Shown here: piece by piece, positions 32,956 to 58,670 of the stretch | How the letters are laid out: each line of letters starts with the position of its first letter | How positions within the stretch are numbered: the stretch's first letter is position 1 | Source of the DNA: Candidatus Thalassarchaeaceae archaeon | GTDB lineage: Archaea > Thermoplasmatota > Poseidoniia > Poseidoniales > Thalassarchaeaceae | Length of the DNA stretch: 64,000 bases | Reading direction: 5' to 3' | NCBI GenBank assembly: GCA_029250605.1 | Contig: JAQXEZ010000002.1 | Location: 22,775 to 86,774, forward strand | Translations under genes and position numbers: made by a program | Notes under the pieces: generated by a model | Told to the model about the DNA's origin: nothing | The model's input: only the letters and a program-made list of their open reading frames with translations | The model's database searches: none

Positions 32956-32963
32956 GACATGCC

Positions 32964-33914
32964 CTAACGATGGGAGTCCTTGAAGTTGGGCGTTTCCAGA
33001 TCTTTCTCCTTGGGGGTTATTCGGAATAAGAAAAATGCCGAAGCAATAGTTACTACAGATATCGCCATCAATGTGAACAAATGTGAGCTCCCATCAGCAC
33101 CCAATTTCTCTTCTGGGACTGTGAAATTGACCAAGTACATCTGCGTCCAGTTCTTCCCAGTAATCCAGAAACTACCAGAATTCCGATCAAATGCTATGCC
33201 GTTCAATACCTCTTCATTGCTATTTCCCTGAATGGAAGTGACGGCCAATGGGGATGAGAAAAAGTCCACCTTACCCGAAGCAGACGAGATTCTAAGGATT
33301 GTCTCCTCCATCCAAATGTTTGCATATATTTTGTCATCTACACATTCCAATTCATTTAGGTTTGAAACAGGAACGCCATCCCAAGTTACCTGTGTGGTGA
33401 AATCTATTTCAAAGCTATCTGGATCCCTGAATGAAAGCTCAGATGTCCCATTGGATGTAACAATGTGCTCCCCATTGTAGCATATCCCCCAACCCTCGCC
33501 TTCGAAACTGAAGTTTCCAATTATACTAAAATTTGAGATGTGAAATTCCAATGCCACTCCTGCCCTCCAAGTCAGCATAATGATTGACTGGCCCTTTACG
33601 GTAATCCCTTCTCCGAAGTAAGAGTCGTCAATCTTAGTCTGTCTGATAATCTCCCCATTTTGTGAGTCAATCTCGCTAATTCTCGAATGGCCATAAAGGC
33701 CCGAACTCTCGAAAATTGAGTTTTCCAGTACTTCCAGCCCTTGTGTGAACGAAGATGAGTCGTGAGGCAGTGTTCGCAATATCTCAACATCCCTCTCTTC
33801 GGCCGTATGATTGCCCTCCTCGGCCATTGACATCTGTGAAAGGAGTATGAGGAGCATTGCGATGGGAACGATTGATGGCCCCGTCCCCCTGCCCATGTAC
33901 GAACGATGCTCCAT
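32964..33914 (-). CDS. glutaminyl-peptide cyclotransferase (plant/bacterial beta-propeller type), extracytoplasmic, membrane anchored
   Basis: Signal peptide; QC family motifs HDSSSFTQGL, ESSGLYGHS, FGEGIT, LTW; C-terminal TM helix. Confidence 0.6.
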   Translation of the reverse strand: MEHRSYMGRGTGPSIVPIAMLLILLSQMSMAEEGNHTAEERDVEILRTLPHDSSSFTQGLEVLENSIFESSGLYGHSRISEIDSQNGEIIRQTKIDDSYFGEGITVKGQSIIMLTWRAGVALEFHISNFSIIGNFSFEGEGWGICYNGEHIVTSNGTSELSFRDPDSFEIDFTTQVTWDGVPVSNLNELECVDDKIYANIWMEETILRISSASGKVDFFSSPLAVTSIQGNSNEEVLNGIAFDRNSGSFWITGKNWTQMYLVNFTVPEEKLGADGSSHLFTLMAISVVTIASAFFLFRITPKEKDLETPNFKDSHR

Positions 33915-33969
33915 CGATGTTAAAATACGTCCTCGAGCAGTTTGGAGCAGATTGGTAAACGAGGTGCTA

Positions 33970-36900
33970 ATGATGGGTGGTGGTTCGGAAATCTACTCTA
34001 CTAGGAAAGCTGTGCTGACAGTAGTTTCGATACTAGTTGTTTTCATTGCTCCTATTTTTTCCTCTGAAGGGCTAGCAAGCACTGGAGGGCAGCCAAGAAA
34101 CTGCCTGAATACGTGGTCGGTGGACGATACGGACAACATGACGACCAATGACGGGACCTTTGCAGTAACTGTGGAGAAAATCTCCACCAACGCAGCGATT
34201 TTCGTTGAAGACGGTCAAATCGTTTCATCTACTGTTCTGAATGACATTGTGTCAAACTGGGAATCCATAATTTTCCCTTCCACTACCAACTACTTCGGGA
34301 CCCCTCCGGATATTGATGACAATTGTCAGATAGAAATTGCCATTCTGTCAATAGATGGGCCTGGTGGGGAAGAGGGTTATTTTGAATCTGGAGTTTCATC
34401 GTTGCGAGAGGCATTATTCCTAGATATCGATGATCTGTCAGAAAGAAATCGGGTGATGGCGCACGAGTTTGGGCAATTGATTCATCACGAGAATGACCCT
34501 TTCGAATATTTCTGGATTGATGAGGGCGCAGCGGGGCTTTCTGAGTTTATTAGCTACGGAGAGTCAGTGAATCTAGAAGAGGGGGCAAACTCATGGACGC
34601 TGAACTCGAGTACAAGTTTGAGATGGTGGGACGGAAGAAATTCTGATATCGGTTCAAGTTTCTTATTCTTGGCATATTTGGCAGACAAATTAGGCGGGCC
34701 TGCTGCCATCAGAGAGTTGGTGTCTAATCCTTCCCTAGGTGGGAATGGGGTTGAGAGCCTATCCAGGAACCCTGGTCCGGGATCGACTCCAATAGGGACT
34801 TCAATGAGTGAGATCTTTGCAAACTTCAGCGCAGCAGTTACTCTGGATAGCGCGCAGGGTGCGTTTGGTTTCTCCGACCTTGACTTAGTCGATGATTGCT
34901 CAAACGGTGGCTTCTGCAAGGGATCCATCAGTGCAGAGAACGATCAGTGGTCAGAGGCGTGGCAATCGTCAGGACACTCAGTGGAGGGATGGGGGCTCAA
35001 ATCATTCAGATTCACACAAGGTGATGGTTACCCCTTGAGCATCATGGTTCAACCGGACAGATTCGGTTTCGAAGGAGTCGTTCTTTCGAAAGAGGAGGCT
35101 TCTGGGACTTGGACTATGGACAAACTGAGGATTGATTCGAGCGACGGCAGGGGAACGGGACTAGTTCACGGATTTGGAAATACCACCTCCGAGGTTCTAC
35201 TCCTAGTCTGGTACAACTCCCTTGTTGATGACTGTGATTTCGACTTTGCAAATTGTGGCGTACTTTCTGGAGGAAATTACCCCGTCGGGTCATTTACCGT
35301 AAGTGCCAGTCAGGTCACGAGCCCTGCTGAGGTGTCGATAGGGTCGATAGAAGGTTTTGATCGAGACGGGGACTTCCTCGATGATAGCGTGGAAATTGGC
35401 ATCAGCGTCAGTTCTAGTGCATTTTCAGAGTCTCTGTCTGTAGAATTCTCGGCCTTCACCAATAATTCACTACATGATTCTGCGGATTTCATGGTCTCAG
35501 TAGGAAACTCTGAACCGGAAATGATCTCAGTTTGGTTTACCCCCCCATTTACCAGTGATTGGACTTTTACAACTAAGGTCAGAGACATTACTGGGGAACT
35601 GCAGGACATAGCTCAGTCACTCCCTCAGCAGATTTTCAACATGAAACCAGTTGGGTCGGGGGCAATCTCATCAAATGAAACGCAGACATGGACTCAGACG
35701 TACATCTTTGGGGGCGGTTACGACTCTTGGGGATTCGGGTTCCAAAACGGTTCTTTCGGGCACAATGAAACTCCGCAATCGTACATCTGGGATCTGGGTG
35801 ATGGGAATTCTTCGAGTTTGAAGAATCCTGTTCATTCGTTCACGAAGGAAGGGGCATACGTGATCACTCTCCTAGTCAGGGATCATGGGGGTTTCTTTTC
35901 TGAAACAATTTCATGGGAAATCTCGGTAAATGATACCTCTGAGCCGATTCCTGAGATTTCTGTAGATGGTTTGGCTATCCAAGAGGAGTTGACGGTTCAG
36001 ACGAATCAGAGAATACAATTTTCGGCCTTCGGGACGTCTGACAATGTTCCCGTGGACAAATTATTTTTCTCATGGAACTGGGGTGATGGATCTGGTGACT
36101 CTGGTACAGGAATCTTCGAAATTGGCCATTCGTGGACAGATGGCAGTAGCAATGGCACCGTATACTCATTGGAGTTGTTAGTCAGTGATGGTCACCAATC
36201 TGCACAGAAGTCCATTCTAGTCACGGTTCTAAACCGGGCGCCTTACCAGATTTTCTCGGAGGATCTGGAGGGTTTTGCGGTTACTCCACTGGAGATGCCG
36301 GATGTTTTCGAGGACGAAGATGGGATAATTGTCGAATTCAGATGGACTTTCGAAGGAGGCGTCAACTTAGGGGGGGTGGGTGTCTCACTTGCATCTGATT
36401 TCACCGAAACAAATTCATTCGAAGCTAATCCTATCGTCAGTTGGAAGGAACCAGGGGTGAAAAACGTAACACTAGAGGTGGCTGATGATGATGGAAATAC
36501 CTCCATCACTTACTTGGAAGTAGAAATCCTGAATCAACGACCAGTTGCACTTTTCGAGCGCCCTTCTGACGGAGAAATCGGTGATGCTTACATTTTCAGT
36601 AGCTCATCATTCGACCCTGACGGGGATTCGTCTGCATTATCCCACTACTGGAATTTCTCAGACCGGGACTCACCCATTGAGAATACCACTTCCGTGAGTA
36701 GGACTTTTTCAAACCCGGGACTTCACAGTGTTTCACTAGTAGTCGTCGACGAGAGAGGCTTAGAGTCTGCTCCGAAGACTTTCCTACTGTATATCGGAAA
36801 CCCATTACCTGTCCCAATAATGTCATTCATCTGCCCTAGTGATGAAGATGGATTATTGTTTGAACTTCCTGATGATGTGGAAGAGGGGGTTACTTGGAAG

Positions 36901-37923
36901 GTTCCAAGGACAGCGGAAGGAGGGGCCTTTGTTGCCCCTGGGAATCTCATCAGATTCGATGGCAGCGAGAGTTTCGACGCTGACCCGGAATTCGAAGGAA
37001 TGACATCCACGGACGCCAACAGCCCGGATTGGAATGGGATTGTGGATTGGATATGGGACTTCGGAGACGCTAGTCCCCCTTCCTCAGGACCTCAAGTTTG
37101 GCATAGCTATGAGAGATCGGGGGAATATACAGTCAGACTTACTGTAGTTGACGGTTTTGGAGGCGGGGACTCCAACACCACAGAGATGAAAGTGATAGTC
37201 TCTTCAGCCCCTCGAATCGAGACTTCAAAACCCATCAGCACCGAGTACGTTGTCGTTGGAGAATTGGTCAATCTGTCCGGGGACGCCTCCGACTCCGACT
37301 TGGAGGCTGGAATAATTGCATGGATGGACAATGATGCGTTTTTTGATAGCGATGGTGATGGCGACCCTAGCAACGATAGAGACCTGAATCTCTCTGAGAC
37401 TCTAGAGTTTGACTGGGACATCAATGTATTTGTGGATGAAGACTGCATGACTCTATCGGGGTGTGATGGCGATTCGAGGAACGACTGGATAATACCAAAT
37501 CAAACCTGGGCCATTCCCGGTGAAGTACGAATTTCAATGATGGTCTGCGATGGCTTGAGTGTCTGTGAATCTAAAGACTTCGTGATTACAGTGCTCTCCG
37601 TCCAGGATACTGCACCGCCGAAGACTCTGTCCGACTTGACCATGGAAGATCTTGTTCCAGGTAGAGAAAGCGCAGGCTTACTTGCTCTTGTTGCACTAGT
37701 TGCAGTACTAGGATGGATGGTACTCAGAGAAAGGGATGATGATGAGATGGATGCCTTGGACAATGTCAAGAAATACGATGTCGATGAGGTCGAGGCGGAA
37801 GGAGGCCTACCTGGGATGGATCAACACAGTCCCCCTCCACAACCAAAATACCTTACTGCCGACGAGCGCACCAACAAAGAGTCAGGGTACGTGCGACCGA
37901 TTAGAACGAGGCGAAAGAAGTGA
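33970..37923 (+). CDS. giant secreted surface protein with multiple PKD-like Ig domains and C-terminal TM anchor
   Basis: Signal peptide after Met at 33970. At least four PKD-type repeats (WDLGDGNSS...HSFTKEGAYVITLLVRDHGG; WNWGDGSGDSG; WDFGDASPPS...HSYERSGEYTVRLTVVDGFGG). C-terminal TM (LLALVALVAVLGWMVL) and a charged tail. Confidence 0.7.
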   Translation: MMGGGSEIYSTRKAVLTVVSILVVFIAPIFSSEGLASTGGQPRNCLNTWSVDDTDNMTTNDGTFAVTVEKISTNAAIFVEDGQIVSSTVLNDIVSNWESIIFPSTTNYFGTPPDIDDNCQIEIAILSIDGPGGEEGYFESGVSSLREALFLDIDDLSERNRVMAHEFGQLIHHENDPFEYFWIDEGAAGLSEFISYGESVNLEEGANSWTLNSSTSLRWWDGRNSDIGSSFLFLAYLADKLGGPAAIRELVSNPSLGGNGVESLSRNPGPGSTPIGTSMSEIFANFSAAVTLDSAQGAFGFSDLDLVDDCSNGGFCKGSISAENDQWSEAWQSSGHSVEGWGLKSFRFTQGDGYPLSIMVQPDRFGFEGVVLSKEEASGTWTMDKLRIDSSDGRGTGLVHGFGNTTSEVLLLVWYNSLVDDCDFDFANCGVLSGGNYPVGSFTVSASQVTSPAEVSIGSIEGFDRDGDFLDDSVEIGISVSSSAFSESLSVEFSAFTNNSLHDSADFMVSVGNSEPEMISVWFTPPFTSDWTFTTKVRDITGELQDIAQSLPQQIFNMKPVGSGAISSNETQTWTQTYIFGGGYDSWGFGFQNGSFGHNETPQSYIWDLGDGNSSSLKNPVHSFTKEGAYVITLLVRDHGGFFSETISWEISVNDTSEPIPEISVDGLAIQEELTVQTNQRIQFSAFGTSDNVPVDKLFFSWNWGDGSGDSGTGIFEIGHSWTDGSSNGTVYSLELLVSDGHQSAQKSILVTVLNRAPYQIFSEDLEGFAVTPLEMPDVFEDEDGIIVEFRWTFEGGVNLGGVGVSLASDFTETNSFEANPIVSWKEPGVKNVTLEVADDDGNTSITYLEVEILNQRPVALFERPSDGEIGDAYIFSSSSFDPDGDSSALSHYWNFSDRDSPIENTTSVSRTFSNPGLHSVSLVVVDERGLESAPKTFLLYIGNPLPVPIMSFICPSDEDGLLFELPDDVEEGVTWKVPRTAEGGAFVAPGNLIRFDGSESFDADPEFEGMTSTDANSPDWNGIVDWIWDFGDASPPSSGPQVWHSYERSGEYTVRLTVVDGFGGGDSNTTEMKVIVSSAPRIETSKPISTEYVVVGELVNLSGDASDSDLEAGIIAWMDNDAFFDSDGDGDPSNDRDLNLSETLEFDWDINVFVDEDCMTLSGCDGDSRNDWIIPNQTWAIPGEVRISMMVCDGLSVCESKDFVITVLSVQDTAPPKTLSDLTMEDLVPGRESAGLLALVALVAVLGWMVLRERDDDEMDALDNVKKYDVDEVEAEGGLPGMDQHSPPPQPKYLTADERTNKESGYVRPIRTRRKK

Positions 37924-50454: not shown

Positions 50455-51162
50455 CTATTCGGAGTCCTTCGCATCTGAGCCGGAACTGAAATTTAAGACA
50501 CCGTCATCCATCAGATCGGCGATAATGTCCTCCATCTTCCTTCCGGTTTTTTCCGCAATAGCCTGAGTCTGAATTCTATCTGCGTGATCCCTTGCAGTTT
50601 GTGCCTTTGCCGCATCCCCAGGCTGGTTCCTCTGGTTCAAAACAGAGGATAGCCCCCTCCAATTTTCTGGGTTCTCGGCTTCGCTGGCTGTTAGATCCTT
50701 CCAAATCTCGAGGGCTCCGTCAAAGTCGCCCTCTGCAACTAGGCGAGTCGCCCTCTGAATTCTCTGTTCACTGCTCTCGGAGCTTGATGCCTGTTTTAGC
50801 AAAGCCTCAAGTTGTTCATCAGATTCCTCTGAAGATTCTTCACTAGTGGGTTCTTCTTCGGGTTCTTCTGGTGACTCTTCTTCGGCATCGAGGTCATCGA
50901 AGTCATCGAGGTCATCGAGGTCATCGAAGTCATCGAAGTCATCGTGGTCATCTTCTTCCTTCTCGGTCGCCTTAATTTTCTTCTCGGCATCCTTGGCCTT
51001 CTTCTCGGCATCCTTGGCCTTCTTCTCAGCCTCCTTTACCTTCTCCTCAGCCTCCTTTATCTTCTTCTCGGCCTCCTTGTTCTTCTGCGCTAGACGGAAC
51101 GCAATATGCTCAGGAATCTTCTTTGCCATGAAAACTACCGAGACTTGGGAAAGACGGAGCAC
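50455..51162 (-). CDS. low-complexity coiled-coil/acidic repeat protein with C-terminal TPR-like module
   Basis: (K)EAEKK(A/I)K heptad repeats, a (DDF/DDL)n tract encoded by 9-nt tandem repeats, and a C-terminal helical hairpin (GDFDGALEIWKDL...NWRGLSS). Confidence 0.45.
   Translation of the reverse strand: MLRLSQVSVVFMAKKIPEHIAFRLAQKNKEAEKKIKEAEEKVKEAEKKAKDAEKKAKDAEKKIKATEKEEDDHDDFDDFDDLDDLDDFDDLDAEEESPEEPEEEPTSEESSEESDEQLEALLKQASSSESSEQRIQRATRLVAEGDFDGALEIWKDLTASEAENPENWRGLSSVLNQRNQPGDAAKAQTARDHADRIQTQAIAEKTGRKMEDIIADLMDDGVLNFSSGSDAKDSE
50890..51090. repeat. in-frame coding microsatellites: 7 copies of the 9-nt unit gaDgtcatc (50890..50952) and about 5 degenerate copies of a 21-nt unit (50966..51090)
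   Basis: Direct reading of tandem units. They lie inside CDS 50455..51162 and encode the DDF/DDL and KEAEKK repeats. Confidence 0.7.
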
Positions 51163-51228: not shown

Positions 51229-51888
51229 CTATGACAAGGATTCGGCCCGTTCCTCACAAGCCTTCGCCCTTCCAGAGAGTCCGATTGAAGAAAAATAGGA
51301 AGAGAATGCATTCCATGTATCTGAGTCAGAAGAATCTTCGGAAACCATATGCTTGAGGTTTTTCAATGCAGATTCGTATTCGCCTCCGACTATCAATTCC
51401 AATGTTTGTTCGATACCCTGGGTTTCCTGTGAGGCCTCAGTTGCCTCAGAAGCCACTGCTACATTGGCATCTGCCTTGCCATACTTCTCCTCCGCCCAGA
51501 GGATTAGCTTCGGCCACTTGCCCTCGAACTTGTCAAGCCTCTTTTCGATGCTGCCGATCATCTTTTCCAACTCCTTTCCGTCAATATTGGATCGGAAAAT
51601 GGACTCCAATGCGCTGAAGGCTTCTTCACGCGAGATCTCTACTTGGGCAGGCTGTTCTGATGCCTTCTGATCTTGCTCTTTTTCTTCCTGGGCTGGTTGT
51701 TCGGAGTCTTCTGGCTTTCCGTACTTCTGCTCTGCCCATTTGATCAGTCCGCCCCACTTCCCCTCAAACTTGTCCAGTCTCTTTTCGATGCTAATGAGGG
51801 CTTTCTCCAGTTCCTCTCCTTCCATAGCCGATGAGAAAATAGCCTCCAGCCTTGCTGTTACTTCCCCTCTTGTTTGTTCGCCTGCCAT
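51229..51888 (-). CDS. internally duplicated helical protein, paralogous C-terminus to the upstream acidic protein
   Basis: Two copies of a ~95-aa unit (…IEKRLDKFEGKW..LI.WAE.KYGK…). The C-terminal GEYESALKNLKHM...TWNAFSS resembles the C-terminus of CDS 50455..51162. Confidence 0.45.
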   Translation of the reverse strand: MAGEQTRGEVTARLEAIFSSAMEGEELEKALISIEKRLDKFEGKWGGLIKWAEQKYGKPEDSEQPAQEEKEQDQKASEQPAQVEISREEAFSALESIFRSNIDGKELEKMIGSIEKRLDKFEGKWPKLILWAEEKYGKADANVAVASEATEASQETQGIEQTLELIVGGEYESALKNLKHMVSEDSSDSDTWNAFSSYFSSIGLSGRAKACEERAESLS

Positions 51889-51944: not shown

Positions 51945-52856
51945 TCACTCCTCCTCATCAGCGAAGCTTCCGGCCTGGTCGAGAGATTCTGATAACCCAA
52001 GCCAGTCTTTGTTCTGCTTGCCCTTTCGATGAGTGAGATTCTTCCACTTGTTAAATGCGACCTTGACATTGCCCTCGTCCAGAGAAGCTGCGGCAACATT
52101 CATTGAAGCGGCAGCACCTAGAATTTTGACGAGATTTGTAAATGAATCGTTGGCTTTAATCGCCCCCTCTTCTATGTCCGTTCTCTGATCTCTCTCAGCC
52201 TCTCTAATTCCACCCCATATCCTCTCAATGAAGTTCCTATTATCCTGAATCGGGTTGAGTATTGCCTTGTCTACCTCCAGTCCCTTCGAGACAATGTAAA
52301 GAGAGAGGCAGAAGAGGAATGACAGTTCTGCGAAATCAAGCAGGCCCCACTCTAGTTCCTGTCCCTGGAACCTCCATGACCCATCATACCTGCCATAGGG
52401 TCCTACATTTGTCGTCTTTCCTAGAACATTGTTTGATATGTCGGCGAATTTACCCATCTTGTTTGCCGTGGAAAGCAGTGCAACGAATAAGACAAGAATC
52501 CCTATCCTAATAGAACGGATGGACTTGATTGCAATCAGTTTCTTGGTCTTCTTTACTCCGAATTGGTTTTCAATCGGCCTATGGATCCACAATGCCACTA
52601 ATGTGTAAACAAGAGATGTCACTATTGCGTAATCTAAGACTCCGATTTCCAGATAGCCCCAGATCTCGAAGTCAGCTCCCTCTGGCAGCATAATCTTCTC
52701 CTTTCCTTGAGGGATGCTTTCTTGACTTAACAGTCCGGTGCTAACTGCTATGTTGTCGGAGAATCCAGAGCTGTTTACTGACTCGAAAAACGCTAGAAGC
52801 GTGGCACTGAATAAACTCAATCTTGTTGGCTTCTTGAACACCCTCTTCAGTACCAC
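51945..52856 (-). CDS. hypothetical polytopic membrane protein with acidic C-terminus (ADEEE)
   Basis: Signal-like N-terminus and at least four TM helices. Confidence 0.4.
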   Translation of the reverse strand: MVLKRVFKKPTRLSLFSATLLAFFESVNSSGFSDNIAVSTGLLSQESIPQGKEKIMLPEGADFEIWGYLEIGVLDYAIVTSLVYTLVALWIHRPIENQFGVKKTKKLIAIKSIRSIRIGILVLFVALLSTANKMGKFADISNNVLGKTTNVGPYGRYDGSWRFQGQELEWGLLDFAELSFLFCLSLYIVSKGLEVDKAILNPIQDNRNFIERIWGGIREAERDQRTDIEEGAIKANDSFTNLVKILGAAASMNVAAASLDEGNVKVAFNKWKNLTHRKGKQNKDWLGLSESLDQAGSFADEEE

Positions 52857-52958: not shown

Positions 52959-54170
52959 ATGTCTAAGAACGTCGAAATGTGCAATGAATCAATGGCGGAC
53001 TACCTAGACAGGATTGGGGCGGGCAAGGTTCTGATTTCTAGGGAGCCTTTGTCCTATGACTGGACCCCTTCTGAGTTGGTGGGAAGAAAGGACGAACTTG
53101 GTGAATTAGCATCGATGTTCTTTGGAATAGAGAATCACAATGTCAGTTGCAGGGCCGTAATAACGGGGAACGTTGGATCTGGGAAGACTGTCCTAACTCG
53201 TCGTTTCTGCATGGACGTCGCAGCAAAACTAGAGGGGCGAAGGAAAGTCTCGATCGCCCATGTGAATTGCAGGAGCCATCCCTCGGCATCCCAGGTTCTT
53301 CAGCAAATAGCATCGTCTCTTGACTCAGGTCATCCTGAGCGTGGTTTCAGCTCTGGAGAGGTAATACAGAGCATTAGGCGCAACATCCGCTCGCGCGAAA
53401 GTCATCTACTTCTGATTCTGGACGAGGTTGACGTGCTAGTTAGGAGAGATAACTCAGACCTGATCTACAAGCTCCTGAGGATAGACGAGGACAAGGAGGG
53501 AGAGGGGACACTATCGCTAATCATGGTGAGCCAGGAAGATTCGCTCTTCACCCTTTTCGAGGCTGCCATCAAATCTCGACTGGGGGAAAGCAACATCCTC
53601 CGAATGAGACCCTATGTGGCAAGTGAACTAGTGGAAATAGCGAGGCAACGGTACGAGGCATCTTGCAGGCCGAACTCAGTTAGTGACGAGGTTCTCCGCA
53701 AGATTGGCATTTTTGCAGAAGAGTCGGGCGGAGATGCTAGGATGGCCATTGAGCTCCTTGACCGCGCAATTGGGGAGGCGGAAAAGGACGGGAGAGAGAA
53801 GGTGACAGTGGACGATGTCCTTCCAAGCAAGTCTCGCTCTGCCTCCGTGGAGCCGAATCAGGTTGATGGTCTGAAACTGCACCAGAAATTGGTCCTTCTC
53901 GGAATCTGCAGGAGACTGAAGAGGGAGGAAGAGGTATCCAGCGGAGATGCTAGCAAGTTGTATGAGCTGGTCTGCGAGGAGAACAACGAGACACCAAAGG
54001 GGTACACCACATTCTGGAAATATCTGAAGCACCTTGAATCGGAGGGATTGATCGTCAGCAGGGCCTCAAGTTCGAATCGAGGGAGGGGGAGGACACGCTA
54101 CATCACGATGCCGAACTCGGTTCCCGCGGTAATCGGAAGCAGGATAGAAAACGAGCTTCTGAGGAGATAG
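52959..54170 (+). CDS. orc1: Orc1/Cdc6 replication initiator
   Basis: AAA+ Walker A GNVGSGKT, Walker B LILDEVD, sensor-2 GGDARMAIELLD, and a C-terminal winged helix. Confidence 0.85.
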   Translation: MSKNVEMCNESMADYLDRIGAGKVLISREPLSYDWTPSELVGRKDELGELASMFFGIENHNVSCRAVITGNVGSGKTVLTRRFCMDVAAKLEGRRKVSIAHVNCRSHPSASQVLQQIASSLDSGHPERGFSSGEVIQSIRRNIRSRESHLLLILDEVDVLVRRDNSDLIYKLLRIDEDKEGEGTLSLIMVSQEDSLFTLFEAAIKSRLGESNILRMRPYVASELVEIARQRYEASCRPNSVSDEVLRKIGIFAEESGGDARMAIELLDRAIGEAEKDGREKVTVDDVLPSKSRSASVEPNQVDGLKLHQKLVLLGICRRLKREEEVSSGDASKLYELVCEENNETPKGYTTFWKYLKHLESEGLIVSRASSSNRGRGRTRYITMPNSVPAVIGSRIENELLRR

Positions 54171-56349: not shown

Positions 56350-56639
56350 GGAAGCGTGAACAGACGATTGTCCCCATGACCGTCCATCAGACCTATCCTT
56401 ACTGCAGCATCCAGCCATGCATGGGCGTAGTTGATTGCTCCGAAGGAGCTTACTAAGTCCCCCTGAGAGGCGAAATGCCGTGCATCGGCAGTATAATCAT
56501 CGCACATCCGAAGCATCTCGTTCAGCCTATCTTCATCCAGCTTGCTCGAGGTAGAAGGTGTCGCCTTTGACCTAGCCTCGGCAGTGAGAGCGAGGTATCT
56601 CTCGATTCTCTCGTGAGTGATTTTATCGGACATCATCAT
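56346..56639 (-). CDS. DUF357-like small archaeal protein
   Basis: INYAHAWLDAAVRIG matches the YAHGWLDA core of DUF357. Confidence 0.4.
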   Translation of the reverse strand: MMMSDKITHERIERYLALTAEARSKATPSTSSKLDEDRLNEMLRMCDDYTADARHFASQGDLVSSFGAINYAHAWLDAAVRIGLMDGHGDNRLFTLP

Positions 56640-58456
56640 CCCCCACTTAGCAAGGATCCAGCACCTTCGCTTAGCTTGAACAGCCTACTTCTCCCTTCCT
56701 TCCGCACGGCCAGTATGCCTGATTTGTGGAGTGAGTTGTAAATCTGAGAAAGGCGAGGCCGTCCCACCTCGAGCCGTGCTTGGATCTCGGCATCGGAAGG
56801 GGATATCTCCCGCGATGAGGCCACGGAGACAACCAGTCTCTCGGCGTCGCTCATACTTCCAAGGTGATTCTGGTCGACGATATCCTTAGATTCCCATGAA
56901 GGCCCTCTGACGATAATTGGGGTTTCAGAGTTGATTATCTGGGTCTGTTCCTCGATAGTATCCATTATTTCGGGTTCTTCGAGGGGTTCGTCGGGCTCGA
57001 ATTCGGGTTCGGATTCGGGCTCGCTAGATAGCTCAGGCAGAGTCTCCTCCAAATCCGAGTCAACTGTCCATAATTCTCCCTCGGAGTGTAATACCTTCTT
57101 CTCCTCGAAAGAGGGTTTTTCCGTGCTTATTGACTTCCTATTTTCCTCGGGAATTGGTTGTTGTCTTTCTACGATGGGTGCTTCCTTCGGAGTGGTCTTG
57201 AGTTCACCAATATCCGGCTCCTGGATGGGGACTGTGAAATCGGGTCCCTTTGGCATGGAGTCATTCGTTATTTTCGACCTGTTTACTAGGCCCGAGAAAC
57301 CCCTATTGCGGCCATTGCTGGGTGGTTCTGTACCCTCGTCCATTGACAGAATTGTCCCTTCGTCGGCTGTCCATCCGGTGATTTTCTCTGGATTCTCCGA
57401 GGTGATTTCACTATCTGGTGAGATTTCGCTGTATTCTTCCTCATTGATTTCATCGAAAACAGATTCTTTCTCTGTGCCCTCATCATTTGGCCACATGTCA
57501 TCTGGTTCTACGTCCCAGTCCTCATCTTCTGCCTCGTTCTCAATGATATCTGGATCCTCTTCCTCAGGCCAATCTTCCACAATTTCTTCGAGGGCAGCAT
57601 CCTGGGGCTCATGGATTGGTGCCGTAACGGTTTCTAACTGGTGTTTTCCTAGGTTATAATCGGGCGTAGTATCCTTCTTTTCGGGGCTCCAACTAGTCAG
57701 AGATTCCAGAGTTCCTTTGGAGCCAAGGCCCCTTCCCTCATCTACAAGATCTCTGAGGATACTGATCACAGATCTTGGATTTCCACCTGTCCTGGACATA
57801 ATTGCCCCCAGTAAATCGCTATTGATGTGCCACCTCTCGAGGGACATCCTGCGAATCCTAAGGTCGCTGAGCGATTGGATTTGCTCGCGAGAAAGGGGCG
57901 CAACTGTGACTATCTCATCGAAAACCTCTCTGGTATTCTCGTCCAGAGATGCCATCTGGGAGTTAGAAACCGAAACTACTACGAGGGCTCTAAGTCGCTG
58001 CAGTATTGGCAATATTAGAGACAAGAATGAGGCTGAGTCGACGTGTGGGGGATAGTCCAGAGCGACGAGGGGCAGTGGTCCCGAGAGCGTGTCCATGGTC
58101 TCCACAATCCTCTCAATTTTCTGATGCATGCTCGGTGGTATTTCATGGCCGCAGAATGTTATGGCAAGCTCGTCCAGAGCGCAGTTAAGAGGGTCATCGC
58201 TATGCCAATATGTTCCAACGAAACGATCGTCAGTAAGCGATGAGATTGCGTTGATCAGAGATGTCCTACCCGAACCCCTCTCACCGGTAAGAAGTATCAT
58301 CCTAGGAGACTGGGAGTGCATATGTTCCTTCCACCTAATCATGGTGTCATCTCTTCCGACTATCTCACTGGCCCGGTTCCTCTCGATTGGTCTAGAGTCG
58401 AATGGGTTTCCTCGCAGAGTAGGGAGGTCTGAGGGAGAAAGGTCGCTCAACACCAT
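56636..58456 (-). CDS. divergent Orc1/Cdc6-like AAA+ ATPase with ~250-aa acidic low-complexity insertion and C-terminal winged HTH
   Basis: Walker A GERGSGRTSL, Walker B LVALDYP, sensor-2-like GGNPRSVISILRDLVDE. A D/E/P/S-rich disordered segment follows. The C-terminal wHTH is LVVSVASSREISPSDAEIQARLEVGRPRLSQIYNSLHKSGILAV. Confidence 0.55.
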   Translation of the reverse strand: MVLSDLSPSDLPTLRGNPFDSRPIERNRASEIVGRDDTMIRWKEHMHSQSPRMILLTGERGSGRTSLINAISSLTDDRFVGTYWHSDDPLNCALDELAITFCGHEIPPSMHQKIERIVETMDTLSGPLPLVALDYPPHVDSASFLSLILPILQRLRALVVVSVSNSQMASLDENTREVFDEIVTVAPLSREQIQSLSDLRIRRMSLERWHINSDLLGAIMSRTGGNPRSVISILRDLVDEGRGLGSKGTLESLTSWSPEKKDTTPDYNLGKHQLETVTAPIHEPQDAALEEIVEDWPEEEDPDIIENEAEDEDWDVEPDDMWPNDEGTEKESVFDEINEEEYSEISPDSEITSENPEKITGWTADEGTILSMDEGTEPPSNGRNRGFSGLVNRSKITNDSMPKGPDFTVPIQEPDIGELKTTPKEAPIVERQQPIPEENRKSISTEKPSFEEKKVLHSEGELWTVDSDLEETLPELSSEPESEPEFEPDEPLEEPEIMDTIEEQTQIINSETPIIVRGPSWESKDIVDQNHLGSMSDAERLVVSVASSREISPSDAEIQARLEVGRPRLSQIYNSLHKSGILAVRKEGRSRLFKLSEGAGSLLSGG

Positions 58457-58489
58457 AGGCCCTCAGCACCCTATGGGATTCTTAATGTT

Positions 58490-58670
58490 CACGCATACTC
58501 ACGCATTGCAGAGTGCCAATTAACGGGTAATTCGCAAATGCGGGGAGTTGGGATTGTGAATAATTGGTTCAGTATCTATTTTTCCTCTTTACTGCATTAA
58601 CGCATTATTAACGGGTTAGTAAAGCGTTAACAAAGCGTTAACGGGCAAATTAACGCATTATTCGAGAGGT
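58490..58670. promoter_or_regulatory. cluster of six TTAACG(G/C) motifs (3 copies of TTAACGGG, 2 of TTAACGCATTATT, tandem GCGTTAAC) around an AT-rich 38-bp stretch; candidate origin or operator array
   Basis: Direct reading of the 267-bp divergent intergenic region between the Orc1-like gene and HMG-CoA reductase. Confidence 0.45.

Follow-up and report, generated by a model that had tools for sequence, protein, structure and literature searches.

An AAA+ protein of Poseidoniales with a degenerate ATPase site, an acidic linker and a winged helix, encoded beside a phased array of GCGTTAA sites

Does a Poseidoniales archaeon encode, a short distance from its canonical orc1 gene, a second replication initiator? 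The question arises from a stretch of 64,000 nucleotides of a Candidatus Thalassarchaeaceae archaeon (assembly GCA_029250605.1, contig JAQXEZ010000002.1, positions 22,775 to 86,774; in the following the window). In this stretch an open reading frame (ORF) of 606 amino acids (aa) on the minus strand had been described, from the letters alone, as a second and highly diverged Orc1/Cdc6-type initiator. We recovered this ORF at exactly 56636..58456. The neighbouring gene at 52959..54170, 2.47 kb away, had been taken for a canonical Orc1/Cdc6, and this proved correct, its product passing the models TIGR02928 (230 bits, cut-off 181.3), Cdc6_lid (PF22703) and Cdc6_C (PF09079). The 606-aa protein, which we refer to as the target protein, is probably not a second replication initiator. 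It is made of three parts (Table 1), an N-terminal AAA+ module, an acidic disordered linker of 271 aa and a C-terminal winged helix-turn-helix (wHTH) domain, and it is encoded next to an array of phased GCGTTAA sites which it most likely recognizes itself.

We first give the evidence that this unusual architecture is real. Among 5.8 billion clusters we recovered 443 homologues from many independent metagenomes, to which a scan of genomes adds single-cell genomes. The best 120 of the 443 are 551–613 aa long and nearly all span the whole query, with identities down to 58%. Residues 1–256 and 528–606 are nearly invariant among proteins which are about 60% identical overall. An assembly artefact, a pseudogene or a gene fusion can be ruled out, since the full-length ORF occurs in hundreds of independent assemblies and in single-cell genomes and dN/dS stays below 1. 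With six orthologues of usable dS the Nei–Gojobori estimates are 0.04–0.11 for the N-terminal domain and 0.02–0.07 for the wHTH. When 1.84 billion cluster representatives were searched exhaustively with phmmer, 100 proteins reached E ≤ 1e-3; all but a few are 500–700 aa long and have the domain at the N-terminus. The protein family is thus small and closed, with about 100 clusters among 1.84 billion. For the comparisons below we used alignments of 16 Thalassarchaeaceae-type members (A1), 41 diverse N-terminal domains (A2), 16 sequences 32–58% identical to the query (A3), the Orc1 of Marine Group II (A4) and 37 diverse C-termini (A5).

The N-terminal domain was modelled with AlphaFold2 from alignment A2 with high confidence (pLDDT 93, pTM 0.88). 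The model shows a five-stranded P-loop base (beta1-alpha-beta2...beta5) followed by a four-helix lid, that is, an AAA+ fold. Foldseek against the PDB gave 678 matches at E ≤ 1e-3, of which the best 50 are all AAA+ or STAND proteins. The top matches are tied at E-values of 1e-7 to 1e-5 and TM-scores of 0.5–0.6; they comprise the plant NLR Sr35, archaeal Orc1/Cdc6 (2qby A and B, 2v1u, 1fnn), eukaryotic ORC1/4/5 and Cdc6 as well as MuB, TnsC, RFC, RuvB and CED-4. The structural match is not specific to ORC/Cdc6, with ORC/Cdc6 entries being its commonest class (about 18 of the best 50). Profile comparison with hhalign also connects the domain to Orc1 (A2 against A4: 95.3%, E 2e-8, 210 columns). 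The alignment spans the entire base and lid, pairs GGNPR with GGDAR and takes in a pair of helices that lies between beta2 and beta3. In this profile alignment the helices (residues 89–102 and 110–123 in the model) fall on the corresponding Orc1 helices, and AAA_16-type relatives also align at this segment, with longer insertions.

These matches speak for the reading as a diverged Orc1/Cdc6-type initiator or origin-associated factor. On this reading the origin of Marine Group II would consist of the array or include it, and the linker would recruit MCM or parts of the replisome. The homology, remote as it is, covers the whole module including the beta2–beta3 segment at the position of the initiator-specific motif, and Orc1/Cdc6 and ORC subunits are the most frequent structural relatives. 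The target protein, however, falls below the threshold of every Orc1/Cdc6 family model. TIGR02928 gives 12.3 bits (cut-off 181.3) over aa 30–72 only, and a Pfam scan of the protein finds neither PF22703 nor PF09079. Moreover, short proteins consisting of an AAA_16/ATPase_2/KAP-type ATPase and a wHTH outscore Orc1 in the same hhalign comparison (P0218: 98.6%, E 1e-15, 234 columns; P0217: 97.5%, E 9e-12, 215 columns). The alignment with P0218 takes in the N-terminal LRxNPF lead-in, and P0218 carries a similar recognition helix, RPRVSQILNKL. These relatives (P0215, P0217 and P0218) had surfaced at the margin of the exhaustive search, whose 100 matches contain no Orc1/Cdc6 cluster; Orc1/Cdc6 itself has thousands of clusters.

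The Pfam matches point in the same direction. AAA_16 (PF13191) reaches 25.5 bits with the target protein (28.2 for the domain alone, gathering cut-off 32.6), is matched at E < 0.01 by all 41 diverse members (best E 6e-9) and is precomputed for many close homologues, whereas Cdc6_lid is matched by none of the 41. Other matches among the 41 are to AAA_22 (27), nSTAND1 (26; sub-threshold and confined to the N-terminal lead-in and the P-loop) and, weakly, ORC-CDC6-like (8). Among PDB sequences the family profile finds only generic AAA+ proteins; leucine-rich-repeat matches from a PDB search with the single sequence were spurious and were discarded. By profile and fold the N-terminal module is a member of the ORC/Cdc6-STAND (AAA_16) neighbourhood, and its nearest kin are uncharacterized ATPase-wHTH proteins, not initiators. 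The relation of the AAA+ module to Orc1 seen in the preliminary description is thus upheld as remote homology, but the identity as a paralogue and initiator is not: judged from these comparisons the target protein is not an Orc1/Cdc6 member, because several defining features of that family were looked for and are not present. Clustering of the ATPase with a non-initiator family, which had been named as the result that would speak against an initiator, is what we find.

The short relatives raise the further possibility that the target protein is a STAND-like or defence-type sensor ATPase. P0215 and P0218 match the model for Sll1717-family ATPases and the anti-phage models PDC-S20 and DS41_1 below threshold, P0218 lies in an island with HerA and toxin–antitoxin genes, and nSTAND1 is matched by the 26 members counted above. 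For the target protein we nevertheless regard such a role as very improbable. It is encoded by a single-copy core gene with conserved housekeeping synteny across the entire order, its folded domains are under very strong purifying selection, its hydrolysis and switch residues are lost, and it has no effector domain. PADLOC and PHROGs returned P-loop-level noise only, with no significant PADLOC match. The comparison with STAND NTPases as a class is mixed: STAND proteins are among the top fold matches, but sensor repeats are absent and Walker B has a single Asp where hhhhD[DE] is expected. As an observation in its own right, the gene after that for P0218 (397 aa) encodes a HerA/DUF87-type ATPase of 779 aa, and the two lie among PIN/MazE toxin–antitoxin genes (L088:5538-9072, also L089). 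This pair, with sub-threshold PADLOC and NCBIfam matches, may be an uncatalogued defence or mobile module.

Is the AAA+ module an active ATPase? Walker A and B motifs had been reported, but neither has its catalytic residue: the P-loop GERGSGRTS has an Arg for the canonical Lys, and LVALDY is without the catalytic Glu. We read the catalytic positions off the Orc1 alignment as a guide and counted them in the 41 diverse members. The Walker A Lys (K76 in Orc1, R64 in the target protein) is Arg in 34 members and Lys in 7. The Walker B Asp (D155 and D134, respectively) is retained in 41/41; the adjacent Glu (E156, here Y135) is never Glu but Tyr, Phe, Ala, Leu, Val or others, and the Arg finger (R207, here V177) is never Arg. 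The Orc1-type sensor 2 of the preliminary description fares partly better in that GGNPR does align with GGDAR of Orc1, but its Arg (R261, here R228) is retained in only 12 of the 41. Little or no variation is seen at the P-loop glycines, T65 and S66, and among the close relatives of A1 the Walker A Arg and the absence of the Walker B Glu are invariant too. Lys-to-Arg mutants of P-loop ATPases such as RecA K72R and Rad51 K133R bind ATP but hydrolyse it poorly, and we therefore predict that the module binds nucleotide or phosphate without hydrolysis. It would then be a natural AAA+ module which very strong purifying selection maintains although it is fixed in a hydrolysis-dead state, with Lys changed to Arg and both the Glu and the Arg finger lost. 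That all residues for ATP hydrolysis are absent or unconserved also argues against an initiator, although catalytically dead ORC subunits do occur in eukaryotes.

The C-terminal domain is nearly invariant in alignments A1, A3 and A5. Its helix–helix–helix–beta–beta pattern is seen in the low-confidence full-length model. Compared with known structures, the A5 profile finds the ArsR/SmtB protein BigR (1e-5) and HlyU and ArsR (about 1e-4). Pfam matches of the 37 individual C-termini are all weak (MarR_2 17, sub-threshold; GntR 9, Cdc6_C 7), and with the target protein itself HTH_metalloreg of NCBIfam gives 17.5 bits against a cut-off of 55. Two family members are annotated by JGI as ArsR-family regulators. 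Aligned by hhalign with the winged helix of Orc1 the domain obtains a probability of 3.7%, and it lies 271 residues from the lid, not directly after it as in the Cdc6_C arrangement. As judged by these profiles the domain is an ArsR/MarR-like winged helix and not Cdc6_C, a further point against an initiator. R566, R568, S570, Q571 and N574 in the predicted recognition helix and R585, K586, G588, R589 and R591 in the wing are invariant, as expected of a sequence-specific DNA binder.

The long acidic segment between the ATPase and the winged helix is present as had been described. It contains 29% Asp and Glu and 11% Pro, has a net charge of −59 and differs in length between lineages. In a charge–hydropathy plot it falls on the disordered side of the boundary while both ends of the protein fall on the folded side, and its pLDDT in the low-confidence full-length model is below 50. 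It is not, however, uniformly of low complexity as had been claimed, since 4–5 strongly conserved short motifs lie within it. These islands are EDEDWDVEPDDMW, the second and third motifs of Table 1, the EEKxVLxSEGELWTVDSxLExTLPE part of the fourth and GPxWES; at about 32% overall identity (A3) there survive PGTEPP, GFxGLxxRS with R393 invariant, and W463, which is likewise invariant. For the islands dN/dS is 0.06–0.15 in five of six pairs and 0.56 in the closest, low-count pair (L004); for the linker outside the islands it is 0.26–0.44. Such a pattern of selection marks a genuinely disordered region whose composition is constrained and in which short linear motifs are embedded; designs of this kind are more familiar in eukaryotic regulators than in archaea. 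Because the local proteome is itself acidic (14.3% Asp and Glu, 9.6% Lys and Arg) and other genes of the window carry acidic tracts, the linker can be seen as the extreme of a genomic tendency: tracts of at least 40 aa occur in 5 of about 53 window genes, the longest, of 179 residues, in the target protein.

The intergenic region upstream of the target gene, from which the gene for HMG-CoA reductase (HMGR) is transcribed divergently, had been called motif-rich, and scans for repeats and motifs bear this out. Within the 136 bp of 58520–58655 there are 7 of the 11 TTAACG and 4 of the 5 GCGTTAA sites of the window. Every one of 86 orthologous spacers (L001–L087 set) carries 3–10 TTAACG sites where about 0.13 are expected, and in 1.1 Mb scanned each orthologous locus has a single cluster of this kind, which invariably lies in the spacer between the HMGR and target genes. 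The array persists while the GC content of the spacer ranges over 26–51% and the identity of the protein drops to about 25%. The most frequent distance between sites is 11 bp, one helical turn; distances of 14, 17, 28 and 77 bp also recur. When diverse spacers are aligned the layout toward the target gene is GCGTTAAT, TTAACGC, TAACGC, GCGTTAA and GCGTTAA, five phased and partly dyad-symmetric sites, which are followed by a variable spacer, a sixth site at −69, two degenerate copies and a TATA-like box. The motif GCGT[GCT]AA[TC]ATTA[AT] is present in 54 of the 86 loci. As a putative core promoter the TATA-like box would, by its position, imply a leaderless mRNA or one with a very short leader. 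A structured RNA in the spacer was considered and rejected, since no Rfam family matches there. In 82 loci the distal edge of the array lies 199±3 bp from the start codon of the target gene but 105±40 bp from that of HMGR, with spacers of 255–427 bp (standard deviation 39). Because its distance to the target gene is nearly constant while the length of the spacer varies, the array is anchored to the target gene and not to HMGR.

Taken together we favour the following model, to which we assign a probability of roughly 0.5: the target protein forms a non-hydrolysing AAA+ oligomer whose winged helices bind the phased GCGTTAA array and thereby autoregulate an operon of the target gene and the DUF357 gene downstream of it. 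With its P-loop glycines, Thr/Ser and Walker B Asp retained, the base-plus-lid module would hold nucleotide or phosphate and mediate self-association, and would not act as a hydrolysing motor or a fast switch. Several copies joined through their AAA+ modules would line up along one side of the double helix and fill the sites as far as the core promoter, with the ArsR/MarR-type winged helix and its invariant basic recognition helix and wing as the sequence-specific DNA-binding part. The acidic tether would give reach between the core of the oligomer and the DNA-binding heads. Its Trp/Gly/Pro-containing motifs, four to five in number and under strong purifying selection, probably dock on partners or on the folded domains of the protein itself, and its charge may shield the basic surface of the wHTH in competition with DNA. 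Occupancy of the array would autoregulate the operon and possibly influence the divergent HMGR promoter.

Several observations weigh against this model. Nothing that we computed ties the wHTH of the target protein to GCGTTAA, and the array could be bound by something else, for instance by the neighbouring Orc1. The full-length AlphaFold2 model, built with 16 close homologues, has a pLDDT of 42 and was not usable, so that the fold of the wHTH and the docking of the linker rest on sequence profiles and a secondary-structure pattern. Since 7 of 41 members keep the Walker Lys, some nucleotide turnover is possible. In the most distant lineage (L086/L087) only three, more scattered sites remain. Finally, the spacer with the array is the largest non-coding stretch in the window, which also bears orc1, and this would fit a role as an origin or chromosome site as well as a promoter.

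The first of these points leads directly to an alternative which we consider doubtful but worth keeping in mind, namely that the target protein is a DNA-binding regulator or chromatin factor acting elsewhere and that a different transcription factor uses the array as its operator to control the operon, HMGR or both. The array sits between two divergent promoters, and the scan covered the 64 kb of the window and about 1 Mb of orthologous flanks, so that further genomic targets are possible. On the other hand, the array is unique in every locus that we examined and keeps its distance to the target gene and not to HMGR, and across one and the same range of lineages neither the recognition helix nor the core of the motif varies. 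Operators of this sort, furthermore, most commonly serve the autoregulation of a neighbouring wHTH gene. We therefore prefer binding by the target protein.

How widely is this gene conserved? We scanned species-representative genomes for relatives, seeding the scan with alignment A3, and found at least 192. The best 80 of these 192 come from metagenome-assembled genomes (MAGs) and single-cell genomes of Poseidoniales/Marine Group II with the exception of one contig, PAQG01000020.1 (L049). This contig carries the full locus HMGR-target-DUF357-PIN_9-eIF2-gamma-S6e-Orc1 in a MAG labelled Acidimicrobiaceae bacterium, which is probably mis-binned Poseidoniales sequence. In all 83 loci the gene order is kept as far as the contigs reach: HMGR is divergent from the target gene, DUF357 follows the target gene on the same strand, and the genes for PIN_9, eIF2-gamma, S6e and Orc1 are on the opposite strand and convergent to these two. 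Thus the presence of the target gene in related genomes, which the preliminary description had proposed to check, extends across Poseidoniales; the gene is a lineage-specific, single-copy core gene with fixed synteny which appears universal in the order. Synteny holds even in L084–L087, in which the N-terminal domain is only about 25–36% identical. The target protein diverges much faster than its neighbours (36–40% identity where Orc1 has about 65% and HMGR about 77%), and this is because of the linker. A distant subfamily with the motif AQLxAWG is placed outside Thalassarchaeaceae solely by the identity of about 43% of its neighbouring Orc1.

Several of these data bear again on the initiator. 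The linkage to orc1 at 2.5 kb is kept across the whole order and beyond, SMC and ScpB genes are adjacent in distant lineages, and the gap upstream of orc1 itself is only 102 bp long and free of repeats, while the array occupies the large spacer mentioned above. Yet the array measures only about 165 bp, contains neither long repeats resembling origin recognition boxes nor a marked AT-rich unwinding element, and ends at a TATA-like box as is typical of a promoter operator. As a weak piece of evidence, no switch of GC skew is seen at the locus; the skew goes with the coding strand and was set aside as an indicator of the origin. Another candidate origin, an apparent intergenic gap of 855 bp at 32956–33810, had to be rejected since it is coding (a 316-aa ORF). 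In a survey of archaeal replication genes Marine Group II is already credited with the canonical Orc1-1 and Orc1-2, and with these only (PMC3914693). Considering the sequence comparisons and the shape of the array together we think it unlikely that the target protein is a second initiator.

The same neighbourhood permits a more far-reaching proposal: a lineage-specific chromosome-site system in which the array, as the sole non-coding stretch of any size near orc1, nucleates an ORC-like AAA+ oligomer that does not hydrolyse ATP, and the acidic tether with its Trp motifs recruits replication or chromosome-organization machinery (Orc1/MCM or SMC-ScpAB). If true, archaea would have an origin- or centromere-associated factor of a new kind, but we rate this as improbable. 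In a related variant the acidic, aromatic-studded region may act as a eukaryote-style activation domain contacting TBP/TFB. Independently of this proposal we note that in L084:834-6450 and L086:839-6492 the genes for SMC, an unannotated protein of 368–381 aa (possibly ScpA) and ScpB lie just beyond HMGR, which brings chromosome-condensation genes, the target gene and orc1 together within 15 kb.

Returning to the favoured model, the DUF357 gene is downstream of the target gene in every locus whose contig reaches it. In the window the start and stop codons overlap, which suggests co-translation or translational coupling; in L001–L003 the two genes are 2 nt apart. The available structures of DUF357 proteins (PDB 2oo2, 2pmr) are of hypothetical proteins, and a search of the literature for DUF357 yielded unrelated papers only. 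In the deepest-branching relatives (L084–L087) an additional gene of about 345 aa intervenes, as in L084:9809-10840 and L086:9590-10636. Its conserved product of 343–348 aa matches no Pfam family and has a weakly TPR/MIT-like C-terminus, and neither the window nor any Thalassarchaeaceae-type locus contains it; the idea that it is a split-off piece of the target gene was rejected as it has no similarity to the window. On the protein family itself, on the origin of Marine Group II and on an archaeal regulator of HMGR of such a type we found nothing in the literature.

A few further observations concern the surroundings. Three conserved genes without a Pfam family (50455..51162, 51229..51888 and 51945..52856, all on the minus strand) lie between a diphthamide-synthesis gene and orc1 and have Pfam-less counterparts at the same position in L001–L003; one of them encodes a 107-residue Asp/Glu tract (DDFDDLDDLDDFDD...) and a weakly TPR-like C-terminus. 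The gene for eIF2-gamma is split in L084:12001-13238 (225 + 156 aa), on a closed contig from long reads, but intact (412 aa) in the near-identical L085:12001-13239; the split is probably due to a frameshift error of the polished assembly. The 316-aa ORF mentioned above (32964..33914, minus strand) overlaps the first approximately 100 nt of a mechanically called ORF of 1370 aa (33811..37923, plus strand), and because of this overlap the true start of the latter is probably further downstream.

Table 1. Coordinates of the target gene, its parts and the adjoining elements in the window
Feature	Position	Strand	Remarks
Whole coding sequence	56636..58456	−	606 aa, three-part protein; dN/dS <1 in every region
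AAA+ base and lid (aa 1–256), including the N-terminal LPxLRGNPFxxRP motif	57689..58456	−	AlphaFold2, Foldseek, hhalign
Degenerate P-loop GERGSGRTS (aa 58–66)	58259..58285	−	Arg64 at the Walker A Lys position
Degenerate Walker B LVALDY (aa 130–135)	58052..58069	−	Tyr in place of the catalytic Glu
Sensor-2-like lid motif GGNPR (aa 224–228)	57773..57787	−	aligns to Orc1 GGDAR; G225 near-invariant
Acidic disordered linker (aa 257–527)	56876..57688	−	271 aa; charge–hydropathy, pLDDT <50
Linker motif 1, EDEDWDVEPDDMWP (aa 311–324)	57485..57526	−	W314 and W322 invariant in 16 Thalassarchaeaceae-type members
Linker motifs 2 and 3, ITGW..GTxLSMDEGTEPP and RGFSGLVxRSxITNDxMPxGPD (aa 358–406)	57239..57385	−	
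Linker motif 4, KSISTE...EEKxVLxSEGELWTVDSxLExTLPE (aa 441–476)	57029..57136	−	
C-terminal wHTH (aa 528–606)	56639..56875	−	recognition helix GRPRLSQIYNSL; basic wing VRKEGRSRLF
DUF357 gene, 97 aa	56346..56639	−	PF04010 69.6 bits; ATG overlaps the target stop codon (ATGA, 56636..56639)
TATA-like box cATTAAGAAT, −31..−22 of the ATG	58478..58487	−	conserved block; putative core promoter
Degenerate copies GCGTGAG and GCGTGAA, 10 bp apart	58488..58504	−	adjoin the TATA-like box; conserved block AagCGT.A.tAtgCGTgAA
Proximal single site, CGTTAA on the gene's strand, at −69	58520..58525	.	position conserved across loci
Distal cluster of phased GCGTTAA/TTAACGC sites	58597..58655	.	mostly 11 bp apart, partly dyad-symmetric

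Marine Group II are among the most abundant archaea of the surface ocean and have never been cultured. The present analysis defines an uncharacterized and seemingly order-universal protein family together with a precisely positioned cis-element that probably belongs to it, and it corrects the tempting annotation of the target protein as a second Orc1/Cdc6. Protein and array can be tested as a pair in vitro with recombinant protein and 200 bp of DNA, without culturing the organism.

Among known systems, the proteins of the P0215/P0217/P0218 type, in which an AAA_16/ATPase_2 (archaeal ATPase, PF01637)/Sll1717-like module precedes an ArsR/MarR wHTH, come closest: they give the best profile match of the N-terminal domain, have the same domain order and share the LRxNPF...VGR lead-in and the GNPR lid motif, and P0218 has a similar recognition helix, RPRxSQIxNxL. 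They differ in being only 350–440 aa long and in having no acidic linker; their Walker A Lys is retained and their Walker B is of the DD type. These relatives are functionally uncharacterized, and the one whose surroundings were examined, P0218, stands in a variable, defence-like context. Archaeal Orc1/Cdc6 resembles the target protein in the succession of AAA+ base, lid and winged helix, in the remote homology of the whole module and in the lid motif GG(N/D)xR. The target protein, which falls below all thresholds of the Orc1/Cdc6 family, has none of Walker A Lys, Walker B Glu and Arg finger, and its winged helix is ArsR/MarR-like and stands 271 disordered residues off the lid instead of being packed against it.

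Two regulators offer analogies of arrangement. STAND regulators of the MalT/LAL family also combine an AAA_16 oligomerization module with a C-terminal HTH that acts on arrays of promoter sites; this likeness is one of architecture and is drawn from general knowledge. They keep the Walker Lys and have a structured arm and a TPR-like sensor before a LuxR-type HTH, whereas the target protein has an acidic disordered middle, a winged ArsR/MarR-like HTH and an Arg in the P-loop. DnaA, too, joins an AAA+ module, to which that of the target protein is similar in its initiator-clade-like character, flexibly to a DNA-binding domain, and it binds phased short boxes beside its own gene and autoregulates; the arrangement of the array would be parallel if the target protein indeed binds there. 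This is an analogy and not a homology of the DNA-binding parts: in DnaA the ATPase is active and has an Arg finger, the HTH has another fold and the flexible linker is N-terminal to the ATPase. Compared with all of these, what appears to be new is an order-wide AAA+-wHTH protein, predicted to be hydrolysis-dead, into which an acidic disordered region with short motifs is inserted and to which a putative operator array of phased sites is dedicated.

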